Below, one piece after another: positions 2,620 through 46,517 of a stretch of 47,036 nt of DNA. A model generated the notes under the pieces. That model was not told the DNA's origin, made no database searches, and was given only the letters and a program-made list of their open reading frames with translations. The DNA lies in IMG/VR virus record IMGVR_UViG_3300007609_001205, positions 104,834 to 151,869 of that record. One strand, 5' to 3'. A program made the position numbers and the translations under genes. The first letter of the stretch is position 1; every line of letters starts with the position of its first letter. Origin of the DNA: a virus. Taxonomy: Duplodnaviria > Heunggongvirae > Uroviricota > Caudoviricetes.

Positions 2620-3348
2620 ATGGAATTCAAATTCGAAGATATTATTTCAGTTGGAGACTTACACGGTCATTGGGAAGTTGTTATTGAACATATTAATAGA
2701 TATGACATCAAAAACACCTTATACCTATGTGTTGGTGATTTTGGTGTGGGGACACACCTCACAAAAAATAAAGAATTTCTTTTGAAATTGAATGATACAT
2801 TAAAATCAAGCAATAACTCATTCTTCACAATCCGTGGCAACCACGATGACCCAGAATGGTTTGTTAGTGGAAAACACGATGATTTCAAGAAACAATTATC
2901 AAACATCTTATTCATTGAAGATTATTCTATATTGAATATCAATGATGAGAATTATTTATTCATTGGTGGAGCACATTCGGTTGATAGAGTTGCACGGAAT
3001 GGAAGAGGTCTTCCACATTGGGAAGATGAGGTTGTTAGATTTGATTATGATTTCTGTGAAACAGTATCCAATATCGATAGGATGTTCTGCCATACCTCGC
3101 CTATGTTCTGTCCACCAATTGGCCCACATTCTGGATTTATTATGGATAATGCCGAGTCAGACCCTAGTTTATTACAGGACATTTACAATGAAAGAACACA
3201 AATGACTAAGATTGTTGATGATATTATGGCTAATAATAAATTGAAAACGTTCCATTATGGACATTTTCATAAGCCAAGTAAAATCACACACAATGGCTGT
3301 GAATTCATATGTTTGGATATCAATGAATTCTCGATGATCAACTATTAA
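2620..3348 (+). CDS. calcineurin-like metallophosphoesterase
   Basis: GDLHG, GDFG, RGNHD, HTSP, GHFH motifs. Confidence 0.9.
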   Translation: MEFKFEDIISVGDLHGHWEVVIEHINRYDIKNTLYLCVGDFGVGTHLTKNKEFLLKLNDTLKSSNNSFFTIRGNHDDPEWFVSGKHDDFKKQLSNILFIEDYSILNINDENYLFIGGAHSVDRVARNGRGLPHWEDEVVRFDYDFCETVSNIDRMFCHTSPMFCPPIGPHSGFIMDNAESDPSLLQDIYNERTQMTKIVDDIMANNKLKTFHYGHFHKPSKITHNGCEFICLDINEFSMINY

Positions 3349-3369
3349 AAACATACAAATTCAGAAATC

Positions 3370-3606
3370 ATGAAAGTTTATTCTAAAATTTATTTAGTGT
3401 CAGACCCATTTGGGACAAAAGAGTATGCTACTTGTCAAGAAAGTAGTGATATCATACAGATCAATAGCCTAAAAAATAGTTTAGGCGAAAACAAATTCTT
3501 TGAATCAGATGCATACCATCTTGAAGATTGGTGTATTGAAAATGGTTTTGAATATAAGTGTATTAATAAGGAATATGACTTTGACGAATTGTGGAAAGAT
3601 CAATAG
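3370..3606 (+). CDS. hypothetical protein (78 aa)
   Basis: ORF track; fills the intergenic space. Confidence 0.6.
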   Translation: MKVYSKIYLVSDPFGTKEYATCQESSDIIQINSLKNSLGENKFFESDAYHLEDWCIENGFEYKCINKEYDFDELWKDQ

Positions 3607-5078
3607 CTTACAATAACTTGATAAGGATATTTTCTACCATCATCTACACTTTCCTCAAACTCCTTATTGGTTTTATCCAAATGAGATTTCATTTTTACAA
3701 AATCTGATTCCTCTTTGAAACCCAATAAAAATCTACTATCTTTCTTCCATGGACCACCAAGCCTACAACTCCAAGCACGGTGACCCTCGACCATTTTACG
3801 TGCATCTATACCAGCATCTTTGAGCAAATTACCAACTGCTTCAAGTGTGTAAGAATTATCTAACCCACTATTTTCTTTTTCCAAATCTTCTTTGGTTAAA
3901 ACATCTTTCTTTGCTGATTCTACTTTGGTAGCCAAATCATCTTTTGATGATTCATTAAAATTTCCAAAATTCTTTAAATGTTCCATAATATCTTTCTTCT
4001 TTTTTTTACTCTCAATGGAGTTCTTCTTCTTTTTAACATCCTCTTCTTCTTCTAATTCTTTAGAAACCTTCGCAAGTTCTTTTGAGGATTTTTTAAGTAT
4101 CGAATTGGTAGAGTTCTCACTATCAGTGTATATATTATCTGATAATTTACCAAAATCTTTAAACCCCACTAATGAGGATTGAAGTCCCGGAGTCCCACCA
4201 ACAAAGGTATTGGCATTTGATTCTATTTTACGAACTATTTTCTTCATATCATTTGGGTCATTTGTATTCTTTATAACATATTCCTTTATATGTGTGAATT
4301 CCTCATGGTCTAAATTTTTAATAAGATCTTCCATATGTCGTACATTTCCTAGATCATCATCAGAAAATCCTATCTTTGCATATACACCTAACTCACCTGC
4401 CCACTTATTGACCTTCTGTTTAAAGTCAAGTAACGCCTTTTCCTTTTCCTTTTCGGGGTTACTTGTATCACCACCCCGTGATGGTGCAGATATACCAACC
4501 AGATCACAATGCGATATATATCGTTTAAACACCCCATTATCACTTGGCTTACCTTGTATTTTCCGAGGTATGTCTTTAATATCCTTTCCAAATTGATATT
4601 CAAATCGGATAAGGTTCATATACATTGTACTCTTTTGGTCATCAGTCAGATAATCATCTATAATGTATTCTATACCTTTGGCAATCGATTTTGGTTCATG
4701 ACCACGGGCTGTTATAATAGCAAAAAGTGATCCATTCACGAGACATTCAATGAAGTCATCCCATGATGGACCAAACTTCTCATCTTTTATTGCCGATATA
4801 ACATCCTCGAAAAAGGCATTAGAACCCCTCGGACCATTATCACGGAACTCAGAAAAAGCCTTTTCTGGATCATTATCAATGATTCTATAATCGTCATCTG
4901 ATCTAACTGAAGCAAATTCACTGGTTGAAATATCAACTGGAACCCATTCATCATCTACTAGTCTTTCCATATGGATGACTGTAGGCATATTCAGAATATT
5001 ATCATCTACATCAAAGGCATAGAATAATATATGATCACCTGACCAATTCTCATTATATGATGAGAATCTGGTTATCAC
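3600..5078 (-). CDS. HAD-superfamily phosphatase-like protein with charged linker and extra C-terminal domain
   Basis: Motif I FDVDD, motif II ITAR, motif IV FSDDD. Confidence 0.7.
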   Translation of the reverse strand: MITRFSSYNENWSGDHILFYAFDVDDNILNMPTVIHMERLVDDEWVPVDISTSEFASVRSDDDYRIIDNDPEKAFSEFRDNGPRGSNAFFEDVISAIKDEKFGPSWDDFIECLVNGSLFAIITARGHEPKSIAKGIEYIIDDYLTDDQKSTMYMNLIRFEYQFGKDIKDIPRKIQGKPSDNGVFKRYISHCDLVGISAPSRGGDTSNPEKEKEKALLDFKQKVNKWAGELGVYAKIGFSDDDLGNVRHMEDLIKNLDHEEFTHIKEYVIKNTNDPNDMKKIVRKIESNANTFVGGTPGLQSSLVGFKDFGKLSDNIYTDSENSTNSILKKSSKELAKVSKELEEEEDVKKKKNSIESKKKKKDIMEHLKNFGNFNESSKDDLATKVESAKKDVLTKEDLEKENSGLDNSYTLEAVGNLLKDAGIDARKMVEGHRAWSCRLGGPWKKDSRFLLGFKEESDFVKMKSHLDKTNKEFEESVDDGRKYPYQVIVSY

Positions 5079-11852: not shown

Positions 11853-13235
11853 GTGATGATAAAGAAATATTTCGAATTCATAATAGAAGGAAAAAAAGGG
11901 GATTATTCAAATAAAAATCTAATAGAGGAATTATGTGTCTCTATGGTATTGATCAACAATGAATTCCTCGATGCAATACTGGACCAAGGACAAAAAGCCA
12001 GATACTCCCAAAATTCTAAGGTTTTTATAACAGACCTTAAAAATTTGGTAATGAATAAGAACCGACTCAAATTAGGTAAATTCTTTGATGGTAAATGTGA
12101 AGAAGATGCCAATTTTTCGAAATTGAGATCCGTTTTTGATGATGTTGAATTCGACATTGAAAGAGATTGGAATAAATTAGTAAAATCCCGTAACACTGCA
12201 CGTAACATCAAAGACAAGTTATTGGGCGAGGAAAAACTAACACCCGACCAAATAAAGAATGTCTATTGGCTAGGTCCGAATAAAGATTTGGAACATCAAG
12301 AAGATCTTGTTATTGAAACAACACTTGGAAGACAATATTCACTTTTCCTCAATAAGAACATGAAAAGCCAAAAAACATCTTCTTTTAATACTTTTGCAGA
12401 TGAATTCATTGGACCAGACATAGATAGATTGTATAATGAAGACTTTATAGAAAAATGGAATAAGATAACACAGGAATTCGTGAGAATAACCTACGAAAAT
12501 GCAACAAAACCAATTCAAGAACATATCGAGAAGTTCATAGATCCAAGAAGAATACAATCATTGGGTTACTTTGAGTATTTTAATATTAAACACCGTGACC
12601 CAAGGTTCAAACATCTTGGTGAACAGATGCCCGAGTTTGAAAAAAATGTTCTAATGTTTTCAGACCTTATGAAATTCATCTGGAAAGATGCAAAAGTTTT
12701 TCTACAAAATTATGAAAAGGCAAAAGATGAATGGGCAGAGGTTAAAATCGTAACACTAAACTCTCGTATATTGGAAGAATTATTCACAAGTTCCCTCATC
12801 AAAAATAAATCAGAAGAGGTTGAGAAATTAGACGATGGTTATAAAAGATCATCTGGTTCACTTAAAATGAAGTTGATGAAAGTATTTGTTGAGAAATTAG
12901 GTTGTATTGAAAGACCGGTCTTCTTTGTTTCAAAAACAGGAGATGAACTACATAGAATACCCGCAAGAACGTTCTTCCGTTCCAATTATGAAACAATTGA
13001 TATCGACTTTGATTACCATGTGAAATTCCAAAAGAGTATGGATGATGATGAACTGAACGACTTCAATATGAAGGTTAGAATGAATTATAACGGAGATGTA
13101 TTATTGAAATTTAATATAATAGTTAAATTTACCGGAGGAGAATTTTCAAATAAACTAAGTGCCAAATATAAATTCGACATACCAACAAATTTCAATTATA
13201 TCATAAGCAAAATTGAGAAGGAGTCAGAAGTTTAA
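11853..13235 (+). CDS. hypothetical protein (460 aa) with KKYFEFIIE N-terminus
   Basis: Long ORF; AAATATATA at 11840-11848. Confidence 0.7.
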   Translation: MMIKKYFEFIIEGKKGDYSNKNLIEELCVSMVLINNEFLDAILDQGQKARYSQNSKVFITDLKNLVMNKNRLKLGKFFDGKCEEDANFSKLRSVFDDVEFDIERDWNKLVKSRNTARNIKDKLLGEEKLTPDQIKNVYWLGPNKDLEHQEDLVIETTLGRQYSLFLNKNMKSQKTSSFNTFADEFIGPDIDRLYNEDFIEKWNKITQEFVRITYENATKPIQEHIEKFIDPRRIQSLGYFEYFNIKHRDPRFKHLGEQMPEFEKNVLMFSDLMKFIWKDAKVFLQNYEKAKDEWAEVKIVTLNSRILEELFTSSLIKNKSEEVEKLDDGYKRSSGSLKMKLMKVFVEKLGCIERPVFFVSKTGDELHRIPARTFFRSNYETIDIDFDYHVKFQKSMDDDELNDFNMKVRMNYNGDVLLKFNIIVKFTGGEFSNKLSAKYKFDIPTNFNYIISKIEKESEV

Positions 13236-13262
13236 TAGATATTCAAAAGAGTATCAATCATT

Positions 13263-14501
13263 ATGGCATCAAATCCAGCAACAGTAGGTTTAGAAGATAA
13301 TATTGAGAAACTAAAAAATCTCATTTACGCAGGTGATACGACTTCGGGTATAATAAACCAAATTACCAGTCAATTCCTTCCTTATGAAGAAATTGCTAAA
13401 AAGCTAATATTACTAAAAAACCAAAAAATGACAAAGGAGGATGCTGATCTTATGATAGATGGTCCTGAAGAAAGAGACCAATCAACTGAAAATAAAGCAG
13501 CACAATTCCTTTCCAAACAAGATGCAGAAAAAGCATTGAGTGGCTATGTAAACACACCCCTCAAAGAACTCGTATTCCCATTGGAAGGCAGAACATTCAC
13601 TCGGTCAGGACAAACCCAATCCAAAGAAGAACGAAAGGAAGATAGAAAAGCTAAAAATGAACAAAGAAAAGAAGAAGCAAAGGCCAAAACCGGACAAGTA
13701 CGTGACCAATTCATTGAAGAAGCCAAGAAAATAGTTGAACAAGTTAAAAAGGCCCTATTTAAAATAATATCTGAACAAGCAAATATTATACAAGAACTTG
13801 TTAAAGCAGCCATATCATTCGGTGTAAGCATTCCTGCAATGGCAGTAATGGTAGCAGCACCACCTTGGAATGTAGCAGCCGCCATCGCCCTCGTATTAGG
13901 CATAATAGAAACACTGAACGCATTGGCCAAGAGATTAACAGATATTGTAGAATACTTAGACCCACTGAAACAACTTAAACTCTTATTACCAGACGAAGCA
14001 TATCAGGTAATAACTTTACCACTAAATATTGCAATTATCATACTAATTGGTATATATACACCGATTGCTGCATTAAAAAAGGGAATTGATAGCATTCTCG
14101 CCTTTCTCTTGAATCTAATAAGTCCAGGTAACATCAGTGGAACAATTGATAAGATAAAAAGACAGAAAAGAAAAAAAGAACGTGAAAGAGATAATACGGA
14201 TGATGATGATGAACGTCAAGCACTTGAAGATGAAATAGAAGGCTTGGAAACTCAATGCAGAGAATTGGAAAATGGGAATTTCGATAAAATAACATTTACT
14301 GATGCTGATCTTAAAAATTATACAGACACCGCAGATATCTATGAAGAAATAAAATCAGTTGAAAAACTAGCAAATGATGTTGTATATGTATACGATGTTA
14401 AATTACCTGATGGTACAATTATGAGGGACTTATCACTTGATCAATTAGAAGAAATTAAAGAAAGATATGATATTGTATTCAACAACCAGCAAAGTGAATG
14501 A
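13263..14501 (+). CDS. coiled-coil protein with two hydrophobic helical segments
   Basis: AAISFGVSIPAMAVMVAAPPWNVAAAIALVLGII and VITLPLNIAIIILIGIYTPIAAL flanked by charged coils. Confidence 0.65.
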   Translation: MASNPATVGLEDNIEKLKNLIYAGDTTSGIINQITSQFLPYEEIAKKLILLKNQKMTKEDADLMIDGPEERDQSTENKAAQFLSKQDAEKALSGYVNTPLKELVFPLEGRTFTRSGQTQSKEERKEDRKAKNEQRKEEAKAKTGQVRDQFIEEAKKIVEQVKKALFKIISEQANIIQELVKAAISFGVSIPAMAVMVAAPPWNVAAAIALVLGIIETLNALAKRLTDIVEYLDPLKQLKLLLPDEAYQVITLPLNIAIIILIGIYTPIAALKKGIDSILAFLLNLISPGNISGTIDKIKRQKRKKERERDNTDDDDERQALEDEIEGLETQCRELENGNFDKITFTDADLKNYTDTADIYEEIKSVEKLANDVVYVYDVKLPDGTIMRDLSLDQLEEIKERYDIVFNNQQSE

Positions 14502-38594: not shown

Positions 38595-38702
38595 ATGAAT
38601 ACATTAGTATCTAATATCAAGAATGGAAAATGCTTTAAATGGCATTTTAAATCATACCTATCCGGTTTTGATAATAGGATTACTATGTATGACTTTCTAT
38701 GA
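38595..38702 (+). CDS. attenuator leader peptide 1 (35 aa, MNTLVSNIKNGKCFKWHFKSYLSGFDNRITMYDFL)
   Basis: Read manually; consecutive TTT AAA TGG CAT TTT AAA at 38634-38651. Confidence 0.75.
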   Translation: MNTLVSNIKNGKCFKWHFKSYLSGFDNRITMYDFL

Positions 38703-38742
38703 TAAGATAGAATAACACACAAAGGTAATTTCAAAGCCGGAT
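38660..38742 (+). promoter_or_regulatory. antiterminator helix
   Basis: ATCCGGTTTTGA (38660-38671) pairs 12/12 (one G-U) with TCAAAGCCGGAT (38731-38742), which overlaps the terminator 5' arm. Confidence 0.75.
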
Positions 38743-38766
38743 TTCGAAAGAGATCCGGCTTTTTTT
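38733..38766 (+). terminator. intrinsic terminator directly upstream of the tRNA array
   Basis: AAAGCCGGATTTC-GAAA-GAGATCCGGCTTT plus T-run. Confidence 0.9.
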
Positions 38767-38775
38767 ATTTTACAT

Positions 38776-38848
38776 GGTGGATGTAGCTCAGGGGAAGAGT
38801 GTCGGTTTGTGAAACCGAAGGTCGGGATTTCGAAACTCCTCATCCACA
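38776..38848 (+). tRNA. tRNA-His(GTG), G-1 opposite A73, T-stem mismatch
   Basis: Cloverleaf folded by hand; anticodon 38809-38811; no encoded CCA. Confidence 0.8.
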
Positions 38849-38850
38849 CA

Positions 38851-38921
38851 TAGTCAGAACTGATGTGGTGCAGTGCCCCTGAGAAACAGGGGGATTTGAG
38901 GGTTCGATTCCCTCCTGACAA
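38851..38921 (+). tRNA. atypical tRNA-like element (nominal GAA anticodon, no U33)
   Basis: Perfect T-arm GAGGG-TTCGATT-CCCTC; acceptor core GTCAG/CTGAC; anticodon arm CCCCT-GAGAAAC-AGGGG. Confidence 0.5.
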
Positions 38922-38926
38922 AAATT

Positions 38927-39000
38927 GGCTTCGTAACTCAGCCGGGTAGAGTGACAGACTGAAAATCTGTTGGTCATGGGTTCAAATCCCATCGAAGCCA
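38927..39000 (+). tRNA. tRNA-Phe(GAA)
   Basis: Canonical cloverleaf; ACAGA-CTGAAAA-TCTGT. Confidence 0.95.
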
Positions 39001-39009
39001 CAAACATAC

Positions 39010-39082
39010 GATCTCGTAGCTCAGTTGGTAGAGCATTCCCCTTTTAAGGGAAGGGTCGTGGGTTCGAGGCCTACCGGGATCA
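39010..39082 (+). tRNA. tRNA-Lys(TTT)
   Basis: Canonical cloverleaf; TTCCC-CTTTTAA-GGGAA. Confidence 0.95.
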
Positions 39083-39091
39083 CTAAAATAT

Positions 39092-39183
39092 GGTGATTGT
39101 AGCTGAATGGTATGTAGTACCGTAAGGGAACAAGCACTTGGTTGTGACCCAAGAGGATGCCGGTTCGAGTCCGGTCTTTCACC
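39092..39183 (+). tRNA. tRNA-His(GTG) with G-1:C73 and greatly expanded D-loop
   Basis: CTTGG-TTGTGAC-CCAAG; 28-nt D-loop (39105-39132); two T-T mismatches in acceptor stem. Confidence 0.8.
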
Positions 39184-39191
39184 CAAAATAT

Positions 39192-39265
39192 GGCACCGTA
39201 ACTCAGTCTGGTAGAGTGGTCCCCTGAAGAGGGAAGGGTCGTTGGTTCAAATCCAACCGGTGCCA
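39192..39265 (+). tRNA. tRNA-Phe(GAA), G37 variant
   Basis: GTCCC-CTGAAGA-GGGAA; full acceptor and T arms. Confidence 0.9.
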
Positions 39266-39280
39266 CAGAAAATATTAAAT

Positions 39281-39355
39281 GCAGGAGTAGCTCAGCCTGG
39301 TCAGAGCAACGGTCTCCAAAACCGTGTGTCGGTGGTTCGAATCCATCCTCCTGTG
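39281..39355 (+). tRNA. tRNA-Trp(CCA)
   Basis: ACGGT-CTCCAAA-ACCGT; canonical arms. Confidence 0.93.
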
Positions 39356-39369
39356 CAAAAAAAAATAGA

Positions 39370-39411
39370 ATGAGAATGAAAACTAAACGGAAATATAAAC
39401 AGTTTAGTTAG
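39370..39411 (+). CDS. Lys-rich leader peptide 2 (MRMKTKRKYKQFS)
   Basis: 4 AAA codons in 13; stop overlaps hairpin 39405-39434; precedes two tRNA-Lys genes and lysS. Confidence 0.55.
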   Translation: MRMKTKRKYKQFS

Positions 39412-39439
39412 ACTTGATGAAAAGAGTCTAACTACATTA

Positions 39440-39532
39440 GGCTCTGTCGTATAGCGGCCATTACACCTCCCTTTTAAGGAGATGAGGTAATCAAGTCCTC
39501 GACCGTGGGTTCGAGTCCCACCAGAGCCACCA
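39440..39532 (+). tRNA. tRNA-Lys(TTT) with long variable arm and encoded CCA
   Basis: CCTCC-CTTTTAA-GGAGA; 22-nt variable region with GAGG/CCTC stem; ACCA end. Confidence 0.85.
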
Positions 39533-39616
39533 GCGTTTGTGGGTGAGTGGTCGAAACCAATAGTCTCTTAAACTATCTCCGTAAGGACATCGCAGGTCCG
39601 AATCCTGCCAAACGCA
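39533..39616 (+). tRNA. tRNA with Lys(CTT) anticodon on a class II (Leu/Ser/Tyr-like) body
   Basis: ATAGT-CTCTTAA-ACTAT; D-arm GGT-GAGTGGTCGAA-ACC; variable arm CTCCGTAAGGACATC; T-loop TCCGAAT; A73. Confidence 0.85.
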
Positions 39617-39669
39617 CATCGAACCCATAATGTGTATATTAAGGCACTTACATTCACAATATATACATT

Positions 39670-40617
39670 ATGGAATATTATGAAGAAATACAAAAATACT
39701 ATGATGATGGACATACAATTGCGGAAACATGTTTAAAATTCAATATAAGTGAGAGTAAAGCATATCGGGCATCAAAAAGAGGACAACTAAAATTTAGAAG
39801 TCTGAGTGAAGCGATGAAAATATCATGTAAAAAGAAACCTAGAAAGCATACAGATGAAACAAAAGAAAAACTAAGTAAGATACGTAAAGAATATCTTCGA
39901 AAAAATCCAAATAAAGTCCCATACCTATTAAACCACAGTAGTAAAGGATCGTATCCGGAAAAATACTTTACTGAGGTATTTAAAAGGGAAGGATTAGATG
40001 TTGTTAAAAAATTTAGAGTTTCTTTATATGAACTTGACTTTTCTATACCACATAAAAAGATAGATATTGAAATAGATGGGAATCAACATTATGATGATAT
40101 TAAAATAGTTGAAAGTGATATTAGGAGAAATGAATTTCTCGAAACAGAAGGATGGGATGTAATACGTATAAATTGGTCAAACTATCAAAAATTAAATTAT
40201 AAAGAGAAAAATATGTTCATAAATGACCTCAAATCTTATGTAAATAATTTAAGTGAAATCAAACCAACCATAACCACTAAACCAAGTATGAGAGGAAAAA
40301 ATTTATGTGAATGTGGTGGATTAAAAACAAAAAAATCTAAACTATGTAAAATATGTAGGCACGAAAACTCTAAAAAAAGAGATATTAAATCTTATAAATC
40401 AGAACGTAGAAAAAAATATAAATGCAATTCTTGTGGGAATAAATGTACAAATAAAAATAAACGATGTCGTAAATGTTACGAGATTGATAATAGAAAGGTT
40501 ACCGACCGACCAAGCAAAGAATCACTCATAAAAGATATTGAAAACATAGGATATTCTGCAACGGGTCGAAAGTATGGTGTTAGTGATAATACTATACGAA
40601 AATGGATTAAGAATTAA
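39670..40617 (+). mobile_element. free-standing homing endonuclease-like gene (NUMOD3-like + Vsr/DUF559 nuclease + Zn ribbons + HTH)
   Basis: KHTDETKEKLSKIRK; ELDF..IEIDGNQH..D..RNEFLE..GWDVIRI; CECG, CKIC, CNSC, CRKC; ATGRKYGVSDNTIRKW. Confidence 0.8.
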
Positions 40618-40632
40618 TTAAAATCACAAATA

Positions 40633-41832
40633 ATGGAAACACTAAATTTTAGAATTTTAAACATCAGATTGCACGGTAGGTCAGCCTTTATGGATGTTCT
40701 AACCAACGGTGAAAACTTACAGTGTTATATAAACTCACAAGTTGAAAACTTCACCGAGATAACAGAACTACCAAATGGTTCTCACCTTGGCTGTCGTGGA
40801 GAATACTTCACAACAAGAACAGGACACTACACATTCAGAATACTTGAAGCAGACATTCTGAATATTCCCAACAGACCATTACCTGTTGTTCAAAATGATG
40901 GTGAAACACTGTATAACATAACAACTGATAGAGAAGATATCCGAAGAAGAAGATATCTGAACACTATACTCAATCCAAATGAAAGAGATATATTTGTTAC
41001 TCGATCAAGACTTATCTCTTTGATAAGAAACTTCTATAATGACAATGGTTATATGGAGGTAGAAACACCTATCTTACAACCAGTATATGGTGGTGCAGAG
41101 GCAACTCCATTCACTACACATTTCGAATCACTTGATATGGATTGTTATATGAGAATTGCACCTGAATTGTATCTTAGAAGAATGATCATTGGTGGTTATG
41201 ATAGAGTTTTCGAGATAGGTAGAAATTTTCGAAATGAAGGGATTTCTTCTCGACACAATCCAGAATTCACTGTTATGGAATCATATACTGCATATGAGGA
41301 TTATAACTTCAGTATGGACATGGTTGAAAACATTCTTTTGGGAATTCATAATGAATTTGGAACCGTTACATACAATGGGAATGAAATAGATTTCTCAAAT
41401 GTATCAAGAATATCATTCGTGGAATCAATTGAAAGATACTATGGTGAAACAGAAAGCCTTTCAGATATTGAATTGAATGAGTTGTTTGAAACACACGTTG
41501 AGCCAAATTTGATACAACCAACAATGGTATATGATTACCCATCAAGTATAAGTCCATTGGCACAAGTGAGATCGGACAATGAAAACATTGCCGAAAGATT
41601 TGAACTTTTCATCTCAGGTATGGAAATTGCCAATGCCTATTCAGAACTTAACGATATAACCAGACACGTTGAGAATATTGGAGACGATGACCAAGATTTC
41701 ATTGATGCACTATCATATGGTATGCCACCAACAACCGGTATCGGTATCGGTATCGATAGATTGGTTATGATACTTACTGATAGAACAATCAGAGATGTTA
41801 TCTATTTCCCTATGATGAGAAACCGTTCCTGA
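40633..41832 (+). CDS. lysS: class II lysyl-tRNA synthetase, compact and lysine-free
   Basis: OB-fold N-terminus; EVETPIL, GGAEATPF, RIAPELYL, FRNEG..HNPEF, E.ANAYSELND, YGMPP..GIGIDRLVM. Confidence 0.95.
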   Translation: METLNFRILNIRLHGRSAFMDVLTNGENLQCYINSQVENFTEITELPNGSHLGCRGEYFTTRTGHYTFRILEADILNIPNRPLPVVQNDGETLYNITTDREDIRRRRYLNTILNPNERDIFVTRSRLISLIRNFYNDNGYMEVETPILQPVYGGAEATPFTTHFESLDMDCYMRIAPELYLRRMIIGGYDRVFEIGRNFRNEGISSRHNPEFTVMESYTAYEDYNFSMDMVENILLGIHNEFGTVTYNGNEIDFSNVSRISFVESIERYYGETESLSDIELNELFETHVEPNLIQPTMVYDYPSSISPLAQVRSDNENIAERFELFISGMEIANAYSELNDITRHVENIGDDDQDFIDALSYGMPPTTGIGIGIDRLVMILTDRTIRDVIYFPMMRNRS

Positions 41833-41850
41833 TATTTGAATATATACTGA

Positions 41851-42651
41851 ATGAAGCATATCCGAGAATTTAAAAACCAAGAAACCTTCATAGAATGGTT
41901 AAGTAGAAAGAGTGGAATACAAATAACAGAAGGCGATCCAAGATTCGGGTTGTTTGGGGCAGTTTTCAATTTAGGGGATAAGAGAGTCATCAGACTTTCA
42001 AGAACCCAACACTTAACTTATAAACATATGTTAAATAAAAACATACCGGGTGCTGTAAGGGTATACTCAATGGGCAAAATTAAAATACCCAACAGATATT
42101 TGGACCATTTACCGACTAACATCAGATGTGTGAAATTTGGAATGGATTATAAAATGAAAAGTAATTTTGATAAATTATGCACACGCAATGGTTATGTCTA
42201 TTATACTGTAATGGAAAAGGTTGATATACCCAAGGACCTAGTGTTGAACATAGATCACATATCGGACTCCATTAAACACATGGAAAATGATGAACAACAC
42301 GAAACGGCATATCTTGGTCTGAAACATATATATGATTGCATATATTGGGCAGACGAAGAAGAGGATTATATGAATGTAGTACAAGACCTTTATGATACGA
42401 TATCCAATGATTTCGGACCAAGACAGGCCAAGAAGTTACACATACTAATGGCAGATATAGTGGCATTGTTCAAAAAATTAGTTAAGAATTTTAATTGGGA
42501 TGATATACATTCCGGACAATTTGGATATAACACTAAGGGAGAACTTATTGCATTTGATCTCGATGGTGCAAAATTTGAAGGAGATGGTAGAATCAAAACA
42601 GTTATTAAGGAATGTTTGAACGAAACCAATCAAGTAAAGTCAAAACATTGA
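41851..42651 (+). CDS. protein-kinase-like fold protein
   Basis: GLFGAVF Gly-loop, DDIHSGQ catalytic loop, IAFDLD. Confidence 0.65.
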   Translation: MKHIREFKNQETFIEWLSRKSGIQITEGDPRFGLFGAVFNLGDKRVIRLSRTQHLTYKHMLNKNIPGAVRVYSMGKIKIPNRYLDHLPTNIRCVKFGMDYKMKSNFDKLCTRNGYVYYTVMEKVDIPKDLVLNIDHISDSIKHMENDEQHETAYLGLKHIYDCIYWADEEEDYMNVVQDLYDTISNDFGPRQAKKLHILMADIVALFKKLVKNFNWDDIHSGQFGYNTKGELIAFDLDGAKFEGDGRIKTVIKECLNETNQVKSKH

Positions 42652-42735
42652 ATTATTCACATAGAATACAAAGGAAACTTAAAATTAAAAAGAAATAAAC
42701 CCAAACACTCACCGCAATTGCTCATATATAATAAT

Positions 42736-43917
42736 ATGAAATATATCTTAACATTACTTCTTACACTACCATTCATTTCAATTTCACAATCCGTGACGAT
42801 AGATGGTGGATTTATACGAATGACCGGTGATTCCAGGATCATAATAGTCAATGGTGGTCCGGATGCATTCAGTGTAACATCAAATGGTGGTGGTATAATA
42901 ATGGAAGATGAAAATTCTGTTGTTCAATGGAATGATGTGAACTCAATCGGTACATATATGATACCATTTGCATCTTCCTCAGGTGATACTATTCCATTTA
43001 CTTATGAAATAAGTGATGTTGGTGTGGGTGGTGATAACATAACATTCAATTCACATGAGGTTGCACCGGATAACTTTCCCATGCCAACCGGAGTCCTTCA
43101 TATAACAGATGACTTTGGAACTGACAATGGACCAAGTGTAATAGACCGTTACTGGATAATAACACCAAATGGATACACGACAAAACCAAGGGGGACTTAT
43201 ACATTCACATACGATGACAATGATTGGAATGACCCAACCAATTTCATAAATGAGGCAAACTTAACTGCCCAACGATATAATTCAGATGAAGATAAATGGT
43301 TAGATTGGTTATATGGACCAACTACGAATACCATCACTAACCAACTTACCATAACAATAGCCAACCAATTGGATCAATATTCGGTATGGACATTATCCGA
43401 TATAAATAACCCATTGCCAATAGAACTTGTACGTTTCACGGTTGATTGTGAAAGTAGTGTTGTTACTTGGGTAACTGTAACTGAAACCAATACAAGCCAT
43501 TATATCATACAAGGTTCTGATGATGCATATGAATGGAACGACATTAGAACAGTAGAGGCTGCCGGAAATTCAAATCAAATTTTAAAATACAGTGAAAAGG
43601 TTGATCCATATGGATATTATCGATTACACCAATTTGATGTTGATGGTAGTAACAAATACTCTGACATTCTTTATGGATGTCCGGATTTCGAATCTATAAA
43701 TGTAATTGTTTTCCCCAACCCAAATGATGGAAGGTTTTTCATAAACCATCCGGGTATATATAATATTGAAATATATGATATGGTCGGTAAATTGATATTC
43801 AGTGAAAAAACAGACCAAAGGTTTTATGATATGACACACTTACCGAATGGAAGATATGTTGTGAACATACATAATGAAATAAATATACACACATTCAATA
43901 TGATAAAAATAGATTGA
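42736..43917 (+). CDS. secreted protein with T9SS type A C-terminal sorting domain
   Basis: Start moved to 42736 (MKYILTLLL signal peptide); PLPIELVRF; VFPNP...IYDMVGK...LPNGRYVV. Confidence 0.85.
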   Translation: MKYILTLLLTLPFISISQSVTIDGGFIRMTGDSRIIIVNGGPDAFSVTSNGGGIIMEDENSVVQWNDVNSIGTYMIPFASSSGDTIPFTYEISDVGVGGDNITFNSHEVAPDNFPMPTGVLHITDDFGTDNGPSVIDRYWIITPNGYTTKPRGTYTFTYDDNDWNDPTNFINEANLTAQRYNSDEDKWLDWLYGPTTNTITNQLTITIANQLDQYSVWTLSDINNPLPIELVRFTVDCESSVVTWVTVTETNTSHYIIQGSDDAYEWNDIRTVEAAGNSNQILKYSEKVDPYGYYRLHQFDVDGSNKYSDILYGCPDFESINVIVFPNPNDGRFFINHPGIYNIEIYDMVGKLIFSEKTDQRFYDMTHLPNGRYVVNIHNEINIHTFNMIKID

Positions 43918-43921
43918 TAAT

Positions 43922-45304
43922 ATGAAAAAAATACTAACATTCACACTCTTACTCATAACTACACATTCATTCTCACAGAACTATGTGGGTATCAGTAATG
44001 ATCAAACATTCACACCTGATACAACACTACATATTGACGGTTCATTGAAAGTCGGTCGTACTAATAGTTCCATTGGGAATATTTATTTGGCGAACAAATT
44101 ATATGATATGGACAATTCAAATTATTTTATAGATCCTGGTGCAGCAAGTCGGGTGAATGGCTTGGATTTGGACATAGGGAGCACAACAACTAATAGTGTA
44201 TATTTTTCCAATAATACAAGAACCGGCATTTACCAACCCACAATCCATAGTATAGGATTTTCTGTGGATGGAACTGAAGCAATTAGAATAACAGATAATA
44301 GAAATTTAGAATTGAATGGTAATGATATAAGAGGCGTAGAACAACTTCATTTCACAAATGGGGAAGTGTATATTGATGGTAATAATGGAGATATTGGACA
44401 AGTTATCAAATCTGATGGGGATATGGTGTATTGGGATGACATCTCCCCAATAAAAGCTGAGTCTATTTTTGAAACTCTTTCAGGTAGTGGGGGGGTTCTG
44501 TGGTCACATCCCGATGGGATTTATGTTTATATCGCCCCTGATGATAAATTAATACGAGTTGATAATACAGTATCCACTGATAACTGGAGTGTTTTTATAA
44601 GTGGTAGATCCACTGATTCATCTGATGAAATTGTTACAATATCTGATAATATTTCTAGTGGGAATAATGTCGAGTTGGATATATCAGGGTCGCCATGTGG
44701 CACAGAAGAGGTTTGGATAAATGAGATTCACTATGATAATTCTGGAACTGATACATTAGAGGGTGTTGAAATTGCCGGTGTTACCGGGACAGATTTATCG
44801 GGTTGGACCATTTACTCATACAGTGGGGCAGATGGGTTAATTTATTCACAAACAAGCCTAAATGGAATAATACCAAATGAATCAAATGGAATTGGTGCAA
44901 TGTGGTTTGGAATACTCGGACTACAAAATGGTTCTCCAGATGGACTTGTTTTACATGACGGAACAAGTGTTGTTATGTTTATCAGTTATGAGGGTACATT
45001 CACTGCAAATGATAGTGTTGCGGTTGGAATGACATCAACCGATATTGGTGTTTCCCAGTCACCTAATGAAGACATAGATCAAACTTTACAATTAACCGGT
45101 TCAGGTCTGTCTTATTCAGATTTCACTTGGTCTGTTCAAAGCAACAGGAGTGATGGAAACTTGAACGATGGACAGAATATAAACACATGTAATAGAAATG
45201 GTGGGTTTACTATACATGCTGGTAATAATACATCCGGTATTGGGTTTACTCTACACTGCACATTTACTGATAACACATTCATTGGTTTGGTACAACACTG
45301 GTAA
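43922..45304 (+). CDS. secreted beta-rich protein with lamin-tail-like domain
   Basis: Signal peptide MKKILTFTLLLITTHSFSQ; WINEIHYDNSGTD..EGVEIAG..GTDLSGW. Confidence 0.7.
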   Translation: MKKILTFTLLLITTHSFSQNYVGISNDQTFTPDTTLHIDGSLKVGRTNSSIGNIYLANKLYDMDNSNYFIDPGAASRVNGLDLDIGSTTTNSVYFSNNTRTGIYQPTIHSIGFSVDGTEAIRITDNRNLELNGNDIRGVEQLHFTNGEVYIDGNNGDIGQVIKSDGDMVYWDDISPIKAESIFETLSGSGGVLWSHPDGIYVYIAPDDKLIRVDNTVSTDNWSVFISGRSTDSSDEIVTISDNISSGNNVELDISGSPCGTEEVWINEIHYDNSGTDTLEGVEIAGVTGTDLSGWTIYSYSGADGLIYSQTSLNGIIPNESNGIGAMWFGILGLQNGSPDGLVLHDGTSVVMFISYEGTFTANDSVAVGMTSTDIGVSQSPNEDIDQTLQLTGSGLSYSDFTWSVQSNRSDGNLNDGQNINTCNRNGGFTIHAGNNTSGIGFTLHCTFTDNTFIGLVQHW

Positions 45305-45860: not shown

Positions 45861-46517
45861 ATGAAAAACGAAATTAAATTAGAATCAACATACAAGGGTA
45901 CACGAATATTATGTGGGGAAATTGCAACCTATAAAAGAAAACTAATAAATGAAATGGTTGATAAAGTCACAGAGAAAGGATTCACAGAAGTAATGATACC
46001 TATAATCCAAAAACAAGACACTTTCCTTTCGAAAGTCGGTGATGAAAACCAAAAGATGATGTACTCGTTCAAAGACCGTGGGAATAGGGATCTCTGCCTT
46101 GCACCCGAATACACTGCCGTTGTTCAAAAATTGGCGAAAGAGGAATTTATATTTGGTAAAGGGAAACCTATGCCCGATGTAAAGTTATTTTACATTTCAG
46201 AATGTTTCCGAGGAGAGAACTCACAGAAAGGGAGATACCGACAATTTACACAATTTGGAGTGGAAATATTAAACCCCACAAAAGATTATTCTGACTACCT
46301 TTTGAATCTTGCAACTGAACTTATTTCTATGGTTACTCCGGATTATGAATATGATAAAGAGACAAGGAGGGGTCTTGATTATTATACCGAGGGAAAGGGG
46401 TTTGAAGTATCTTGCACTGAACTAGGGGCACAGAAACAGATATGTGGTGGTGGATCGTATGATGGTGGGATTGGATTTGCATTGGGTATTGATAGACTTA
46501 TATTAATTAAAGATTGA
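45861..46517 (+). CDS. hisS: minimal histidyl-tRNA synthetase (catalytic core only), histidine-free
   Basis: KGTR, motif 1 FTEVMIPII, LAPEYT, motif 2 FRGE..QKGRYRQFTQ, RGLDYY, GGGSYDG, motif 3 GFALGIDRL; no anticodon-binding domain. Confidence 0.88.
   Translation: MKNEIKLESTYKGTRILCGEIATYKRKLINEMVDKVTEKGFTEVMIPIIQKQDTFLSKVGDENQKMMYSFKDRGNRDLCLAPEYTAVVQKLAKEEFIFGKGKPMPDVKLFYISECFRGENSQKGRYRQFTQFGVEILNPTKDYSDYLLNLATELISMVTPDYEYDKETRRGLDYYTEGKGFEVSCTELGAQKQICGGGSYDGGIGFALGIDRLILIKD

Follow-up and report, generated by a model that had tools for sequence, protein, structure and literature searches.

A lysyl-tRNA synthetase without lysine in Mar_Mega_1-like megaphages, probably part of a self-bootstrapping rescue module

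Why should the lysyl-tRNA synthetase (LysRS) of a Lys-rich phage contain no lysine at all? The question is raised by a single gene in a 47,036-nt stretch of tailed-phage DNA (Caudoviricetes), hereafter the window, which forms the final 47 kb (positions 104,834 to 151,869) of the 151,869-bp IMG/VR record IMGVR_UViG_3300007609_001205. CheckV places the completeness of this record at about 25%, so the record covers only part of a very large phage, whose genome has a GC content of 33% and is Lys-rich. The gene probably encodes a working, stripped-down LysRS of a Mar_Mega_1-like megaphage, its Lys codons purged by selection, that forms part of a self-bootstrapping rescue module. With every Lys codon purged, synthesis of the enzyme never needs its own product, Lys-tRNA-Lys.

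Composition, conservation and active site of the LysRS

40633..41832, plus strand: compact class II lysyl-tRNA synthetase (PF00152; best NCBIfam matches lysS; LysU active-site residues kept)

The gene encodes 399 aa with 0 Lys and 33 Arg (8.3%) and uses neither AAA nor AAG, so the translation confirms the first-pass annotation, which had reported a LysRS free of lysine among Lys-rich neighbors. The flanking open reading frames (ORFs) are indeed Lys-rich, at 16.8% (39670-40617) and 10.2% (41851-42651), and their heavy use of AAA and AAG rejects an alternative genetic code. AGA, which lies one transition away from AAA, supplies 26 of the 33 Arg codons. Across the 152-kb contig Lys averages 8.3% and Arg 3.9%; about 33 Lys would be expected in the LysRS from the phage average, and the gene is the sole long Lys-free ORF in the whole contig. 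The probability of such an absence by chance, put earlier at about 1e-15, was recomputed from the contig mean as 1.3e-15.

A homolog search over 5.8 billion proteins recovered a compact clade of phage LysRS (395-417 aa, 52-81% identity, on contigs of up to 656 kb), including that of the published marine megaphage Mar_Mega_1 (OU342829.1; locus L113), whose description says nothing on synthetases (PMC9723777). Exactly 0 Lys was found in 47 of the 57 clade clusters, at identities as low as 54%. Five clusters carry 1-5 Lys, confined in three of them to mis-called N-terminal extensions, and five carry 20-24. The prospect that cellular relatives might be equally Lys-free, raised in the first-pass annotation as a test of its reading, does not hold, with 63 cellular LysRS containing 11-59 Lys each and never 0.

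To keep the trait from shaping the topology, the tree was built with K recoded as R. The compact clade was monophyletic, its basal branches were all Lys-free, and the Lys-rich members were nested in two separate places. About half of the Lys residues in these revertants occupy sites that are Arg in the Lys-free majority, and the LYLKR position is still Arg, which fits a Lys-free ancestor followed by reversion. On this tree the Lys-free state therefore appears to be ancestral to the compact phage clade. By a crude estimate the revertants gained about 60 Lys per unit branch length; at that rate, and equally crudely, the Lys-free part of the tree (9.5 substitutions/site) should have accumulated about 580 gains, and at most 7 real ones were seen there. 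Because two nested lineages regained 20-24 Lys while no more than 7 of some 580 expected gains occur elsewhere, Lys is tolerated by the fold and favored by mutation, yet excluded by selection. Loss of Lys-freeness was confined to lineages whose upstream context of tRNA-Lys and leader, described below, was gone as well; in the Lys-normal revertant loci L115 and L116 we found no leader, terminator or adjacent tRNA, and the LysRS lies inside an ordinary operon.

Several Lys-free or nearly Lys-free LysRS also occur outside the compact clade, on long branches. These include enzymes with 1 Lys in a complete 479-kb phage (L054; GC 0.44; 419 aa) and in an 18-kb phage-like contig (L119; 378 aa), each with three tRNA-Lys genes upstream, which in L119 end 17 nt before the start, as well as two enzymes with 0 Lys (P0168, 450 aa; P0179, 398 aa). 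A further 45 LysRS on viral contigs (385-654 aa, mostly about 490-650) hold 15-50 Lys, and no tRNA-Lys was found nearby in the six of these Lys-normal loci that were scanned for tRNAs.

The protein matched Pfam PF00152 (tRNA-synt_2, class II D/K/N core) over residues 104-395 (2.2e-75). NCBIfam lysS models PRK00484 and TIGR00499 scored 424 and 387 bits, under their cut-offs of 468 and 428, a shortfall that fits three deletions in the compact enzyme. Aligned with the 63 cellular LysRS, it is missing three segments: the N-terminal helix (about 65 aa), an insertion following motif 2 (about 23 aa) and the loop ahead of motif 3 (about 14 aa). These gaps bear out the earlier description of the enzyme as compact and lacking its N-terminal extension. 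The OB anticodon domain (PF01336) scored 17.4 bits, below its 27-bit cut-off; the lysS models nevertheless align from residue 7. An AlphaFold2 model from a 26-sequence clade alignment reached a predicted local distance difference test score (pLDDT) of 67 with a disordered core, and was used for the OB barrel only, where a beta-barrel at residues 2-77 had a pLDDT of 80-93. EpmA/GenX/PoxA, the EF-P lysine ligase, is an enzyme of about 325 aa that consists of the catalytic core alone, without an anticodon-binding domain. This identity was rejected, since the EpmA model scored 189 bits against a cut-off of 287 and matched residues 123-392 only, and the LysRS has an extra, putative OB region at its N-terminus.

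All three replacements of habitual Lys residues named in the first-pass annotation (GK to GR, LYLKR to LYLRR, SPLAK to SPLAQ) are seen in the same alignment: R16 stands at the GK site, R182 in LYLKR and Q311 in SPLAK, where Lys is present in 95%, 100% and 92% of cellular LysRS, respectively. The columns of motifs 1-3 are invariant. The lysine- and ATP-binding residues of LysU, which we take to be G216, E240, R262, E264, H270, F274, E278, Y280, E414, E421, N424, E428 and R480, all have counterparts in the phage enzyme when it is aligned to E. coli LysU (1e1o), namely G154, E178, R200, E202, H208, F212, E216, Y218, E324, E331, N334, E338 and R376; LysU F426 aligns with phage Y336. LysU-type active-site residues are invariant across phage and cellular sequences. 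Nothing in the alignment suggests a dead enzyme, and the active site appears intact. The phage enzyme thus resembles bacterial class IIb LysRS (E. coli LysS/LysU, PDB 1bbu and 1e1o; TIGR00499) in fold, in the order of a putative OB anticodon domain and class II core, in identity to the solved enzymes (about 45%) and in retaining motifs 1-3 and the ligand residues. It differs in having no Lys, in its three missing segments and in scoring below the curated family cut-offs.

Farther downstream in the window, two secreted-looking proteins (42718-43917 and 43922-45304) are also low in Lys (2.3% and 1.5%); a C-terminal sorting domain for type IX secretion in the former suggests that the host belongs to the Bacteroidota.

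tRNA-Lys genes and leaders upstream of the LysRS

Upstream of the LysRS, the window contains the following features.

38595..38702, plus strand: leader ORF with the run F-K-W-H-F-K, preceding the tRNA array
38733..38762, plus strand: intrinsic terminator (13-bp stem and T-run), between this leader and the first tRNA
38777..39356, plus strand: predicted tRNA array (His, Phe, Lys, an odd GUG tRNA, Phe, Trp)
39010..39082, plus strand: standard-shape tRNA-Lys (UUU), Rfam tRNA 65 bits
39370..39411, plus strand: Lys-rich leader mini-ORF MRMKTKRKYKQFS followed by a stop, with 4 AAA codons in 13
39381..39445, plus strand: three mutually exclusive predicted helices, within and after the mini-ORF (A, 39381-88/39402-09; B, 39405-14/39425-34; C, 39423-31/39437-45)
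39440..39529, plus strand: long-variable-arm tRNA-Lys (UUU), A73, CCA encoded, Rfam tRNA 53 bits
39533..39616, plus strand: long-variable-arm tRNA-Lys (CUU), A73, Rfam tRNA 59 bits
39670..40617, plus strand: gene with helix-turn-helix and DUF559/MTES_1575 endonuclease-like domains (Pfam), 16.8% Lys

The whole upstream array (38777-39617) serves His, Phe, Lys and Trp, the same four amino acids as the F, K, W and H of the leader that precedes it, and leaders of this kind also occur in L003 and L114. Of its three tRNA-Lys, two have a long variable arm; in 12 copies of such tRNAs from 7 contigs the extra stem is kept through compensatory changes, and all 12 have A73 and a normal Lys anticodon loop. 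Two members of the array are unusual: 39093-39183 is an Rfam tRNA (52 bits) with a 20-nt D-loop insertion and a GUG anticodon but no ARAGORN call, and 38851-38922 is an ARAGORN tRNA-Phe whose anticodon loop is odd in having A at position 33, with no Rfam tRNA on that strand.

In relatives the layout is tighter. The LysRS start lies 17-23 nt past the last tRNA-Lys in L003, L114, L119, L120 and L121, and the endonuclease-like gene at 39670..40617 is therefore probably a homing-endonuclease insertion that splits tRNA-Lys from LysRS in this genome only. In the window and in L003, L114, L113, L121, L119 and L054, a Lys-rich leader, itself followed by a terminator or hairpin, lies ahead of the LysRS, which is Lys-free or nearly so. 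In the window (39370-39411) and in three relatives, including the basal L121, the leaders are rich in K and R and end in a motif of the type KRK(Y/C)KR directly before the stop:

L003 9579-9617 and 9750-9782: two K/R-rich leaders
L114 9544-9582: K/R-rich leader
L121 143-178: K/R-rich leader

Functional analogs of these leaders are found in L113, L119 and L054. In Mar_Mega_1 (L113) a leader with 6 Lys and an intrinsic terminator lie directly before the LysRS; in the unrelated L119 a terminator, for which an antiterminator is predicted, comes after a leader containing IIKKKKC; and the leader in L054 reads MSIRLKRNKRNY up to its stop. Terminators are clear in L113, in L119 and ahead of the whole array in the window. 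The Lys leaders also hold Arg codons and the Lys-free LysRS are unusually rich in Arg (8-10%); a leader might sense both Lys and Arg.

Helix C is predicted to take in the 5' end of the next tRNA-Lys, and the three helices at 39381-39445 may act as a switch. No T-run lies behind them, so tRNA folding or processing, rather than termination, may be what they gate.

The proposed module would run, in order, from a Lys-codon-rich leader through an RNA hairpin or terminator and phage tRNA-Lys genes, both standard and long-arm, to the LysRS. When charged tRNA-Lys is low, ribosomes would stall in the leader and the module would be read through. New phage tRNA-Lys would then be transcribed, and the Lys-free LysRS mRNA would be translated at full speed while Lys codons elsewhere stall, restoring Lys decoding for a phage proteome with 8% Lys. 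The arrangement is comparable to attenuation (trp, his and pheST leaders) and T-box systems in that a leader with cognate codons, and a terminator or alternative helices, stand before the genes that would relieve the shortage. Unlike those systems, the phage module contains tRNA genes together with a synthetase, and the Lys leader in the window has no T-run terminator.

The shortage itself may have several sources. A host defense that cuts tRNA-Lys, or host shut-off inflicted by the phage, is a serious candidate without being the probable one, and we judge a mismatch of supply and demand during a long AT-rich infection to be just as plausible. Amino acid starvation is a rather unlikely source. 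Phage answers to tRNA-Lys-cutting defenses include T4 Pnkp/Rnl1 against PrrC and T5 tRNA-Lys against PARIS. As in those cases the phage supplies or restores tRNA-Lys, and a phage tRNA-Lys of odd shape could escape a nuclease. The window differs in that its module adds a Lys-free synthetase and the pattern concerns many amino acids; any link to a nuclease or to repair would be conjectural here.

Synthetases without their own amino acid

The lysine-free LysRS is one case of a wider pattern. Phage genome G001 (IMGVR_UViG_3300049793_000366; 507,910 bp; stretches L063-L088), whose LysRS is 68% identical to that of the window, was scanned without recourse to annotation for the total absence of any amino acid in its 671 ORFs. 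The eight strongest protein-sized absences were all in synthetases, as identified by Pfam, bar one Cys-free 1099-aa ORF with no Pfam match. Together with two further ORFs of this kind, ten enzymes in G001 lack one amino acid each:

742 aa: Ile missing (P 5e-28), NCBIfam ileS
509 aa: Val missing (P 4e-14), NCBIfam valS
425 aa: Asp missing (P 7e-14), NCBIfam aspS
375 aa: Thr missing (P 8e-11), NCBIfam thrS
366 aa: Phe missing (P 1e-8), NCBIfam PheS-related SrmL/pheS_mito
359 aa: Tyr missing (P 2e-8), NCBIfam tyrS
240 aa: Ala missing (P 1e-5), NCBIfam alaS
368 aa: Pro missing (P 2e-5), NCBIfam proS
240 aa: Trp missing, NCBIfam trpS
211 aa: His missing, NCBIfam hisS

The missing residue equals the specificity assigned independently by NCBIfam in 10 of 10 enzymes (example synthetase ORFs are L065:11775-14003, L082:16695-18224, L082:8279-9556 and L079:2073-3200). 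The full G001 inventory comprises 17 ORFs resembling aminoacyl-tRNA synthetases, 16 of them depleted in the cognate amino acid; in 14, no other residue is depleted as strongly. Depletion is incomplete in the following enzymes, given as residues observed/expected.

AsnRS: Asn 1/26
GlnRS: Gln 1/16
Second Glu/Gln-type enzyme: Gln 2/15, Glu 20/35
GlyRS-like core: Gly 1/15
SerRS: Ser 12/30

The pattern extends to homologs of these enzymes. Compact IleRS have 0 Ile in 65 of 104 homologs and no more than 2 in 91, compared with 34-74 Ile in long cellular IleRS, and 90 of 120 SrmL-type PheRS homologs have 0 Phe, some of them on contigs of more than 1 Mb. The Phe-free, single-chain PheRS-like enzyme of G001 (L003:16740-17837, equivalent to G001 415861-416961) matched NF051887, the 'PheS-related mystery ligase SrmL', with 434 bits against a cut-off of 300. 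Absence of the cognate residue suggests that the substrate of SrmL is phenylalanine. SrmL is like the LysRS in lacking its cognate residue; it is unlike it in belonging to another family with another amino acid and in occurring also on contigs of more than 1 Mb, which may be cellular.

In Mar_Mega_1 a 456-aa synthetase of the D/K/N class (L113:7048-8418), an AsnRS, has 0 Asn; a class I synthetase at the same locus (3263-4561) is missing no amino acid. At L115, where the LysRS regained Lys, an AspRS-like gene (13200-14446) is split into two ORFs, with 2 Asp in 325 aa and 2 in 96 aa. The window itself contains a second cognate-free synthetase:

45861..46517, plus strand: HisRS-like catalytic core of 218 aa with 0 His and 0 Trp, without an anticodon-binding domain

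A 412-aa ORF elsewhere in the window (13263-14501) also has 0 His (P about 6e-4); its sequence is coiled-coil- or membrane-like, with no Pfam match, and it is probably unrelated to the synthetase rule.

As the missing residue tracks the substrate of each enzyme, the chemistry of lysine fails as the cause, which points to a constraint acting through translation. Selection to stay translatable without Lys-tRNA-Lys, as the first-pass annotation had proposed, is thus supported by the 47 of 57 Lys-free clusters, by the loss of the trait along with its context and by the other cognate-free synthetases.

Competing explanations and meaning

Alves and Savageau reportedly described, in 2005, a cognate bias of amino acid biosynthetic enzymes. 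Measured against their criteria, the LysRS shows the under-representation of the cognate residue (0 against about 33 Lys) and is not a member of a biosynthetic pathway. Under the cognate bias hypothesis, biosynthetic enzymes under-use their own amino acid, for example TrpA without Trp; synthetases were not treated (Fasani and Savageau 2014, PMC4209129). The likeness is that an enzyme relieving the shortage of an amino acid avoids that amino acid, so that no deadlock arises. There, however, the effect is a statistical under-use within pathways, whereas the phage LysRS is a synthetase, its depletion is total, and the pattern takes in the majority of a single virus's synthetases and is linked to tRNA genes and leaders. 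Classical cognate bias, in which free lysine is scarce and Lys is economized in an enzyme made during lysine starvation, is accordingly an unlikely explanation, even with a principle published for biosynthetic enzymes (PMC4209129) and leader peptides that would sense starvation equally well. A synthetase is no help if the amino acid itself is absent, and several extra cognate tRNA genes, some of unusual structure, point to the tRNA or charging step; this explanation differs from a rescue module for charged tRNA-Lys only in the cause of the shortage.

Other accounts place the reason outside the supply of Lys-tRNA-Lys. Lysine deserts have been proposed to shield toxins and some phage proteins from tagging, in a 2026 review that mentions no synthetase or tRNA (PMC13696103), and the LysRS might in the same way escape lysine-directed attack, be it ubiquitin- or Pup-like tagging, acetylation, Lys-specific proteases or self-lysylation by its own Lys-AMP. 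This is highly improbable: the sister synthetases instead lack Ile, Val, Asp, Thr, Phe, Tyr, Ala or Pro, or are depleted in Asn or Gln, in each case their own substrate, and no side-chain chemistry accounts for absences matched to substrates. Moreover, all other phage proteins are Lys-rich, and cellular LysRS makes Lys-AMP yet holds 11-59 Lys. Scores below the NCBIfam lysS cut-offs and three missing segments could indicate a non-translational paralog, in which the Lys-free state serves EpmA-like modification, Ap4A synthesis or lipid lysylation. We consider this very unlikely, given that an OB anticodon-binding domain appears to be kept, unlike in EpmA, that lysS outscores EpmA by 424 to 189 bits, that at least six loci have the LysRS immediately downstream of tRNA-Lys genes, and that the cognate-free rule matches tRNA-charging specificity in all ten enzymes. 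The class II-like bodies of the tRNAs with UUU and CUU anticodons raise the further idea that long-arm tRNAs carry Leu, Ser or Tyr, so that Lys codons are misread and the LysRS avoids corruption. A73 and a canonical anticodon loop for Lys, the principal identity elements recognized by LysRS, are present in all of these tRNAs; misreading would corrupt the remaining phage genes, every one of them Lys-rich, and the rule extends to amino acids without such tRNAs, leaving this idea with hardly any likelihood. Chance or compositional drift can be practically dismissed. A few LysRS from high-GC organisms or halophiles are Lys-poor (P0156, P0267), but here the probability is about 1e-15 in a Lys-rich genome of 33% GC, the state is kept across 47 clusters and reversed where its context was lost, and cellular LysRS never reach 0.

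Several observations weigh against a self-bootstrapping rescue module. Five clade members carry Lys, so the rule is not absolute, and the leader of the basal Lys-free L120 has only 1 Lys, despite an upstream terminator and the tRNA-Lys/LysRS layout. In the window, a Lys-rich endonuclease gene separates the tRNAs from the LysRS, and classical termination is not evident after the hairpin of the Lys leader. In G001, SerRS keeps 12 Ser and one class I enzyme is only mildly depleted in Leu. An independent 479-kb phage (G002) has a LysRS with 1 Lys and tRNA-Lys, and a HisRS-like enzyme with 3 His; in its composition scan the wider cognate-free rule was not seen, the other outliers not being synthetases. 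Composition, its conservation and reversal, gene order, leaders and active-site residues are observed, and enzyme activity, attenuation and the cause of the shortage are inferred from them. Host LysRS could go on charging the phage tRNAs were tRNA-Lys the sole target of destruction; that the phage requires a LysRS of its own is assumed, either because the long-arm tRNAs would be orthogonal or because there would be too little host enzyme.

The Lys-free LysRS is an extreme variant of a known principle in a known enzyme family and a piece of a larger, undescribed pattern; full-text literature searches found no account of cognate-free synthetases. Synthetases are the step at which translation depends on itself: once the tRNA charged with a given amino acid is gone, a synthetase for that amino acid that also contains it cannot be made. 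These phages appear to solve this lock systematically by deleting the amino acid from the enzyme, and the solution is kept in large, old metagenomic gene families, providing a clear-cut case from nature in which selection has shaped protein composition down to single codons.

It is possible, though doubtful, that Mar_Mega_1-like megaphages carry a near-complete, restartable aminoacylation system, with cognate-free synthetases wired to cognate-sensing leaders and an insulated pair of LysRS and long-arm tRNA-Lys. If so, host nucleases, and perhaps host LysRS too, would not act on this pair, and the phage could survive, or itself inflict, a wholesale loss of tRNA charging in the host. It would also follow that an orphan synthetase-like enzyme such as SrmL reveals its specificity by the amino acid it is missing. 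In practice, the pattern can guide guesses at the substrates of synthetase-like genes that have no assignment, and it supplies parts ready for use in self-regenerating cell-free translation and, possibly, as orthogonal tRNA/synthetase pairs. For the biology of huge phages, it suggests a new view of their synthetases and tRNAs, as starvation- or defense-proof rescue modules and not simple tuning of codon usage.

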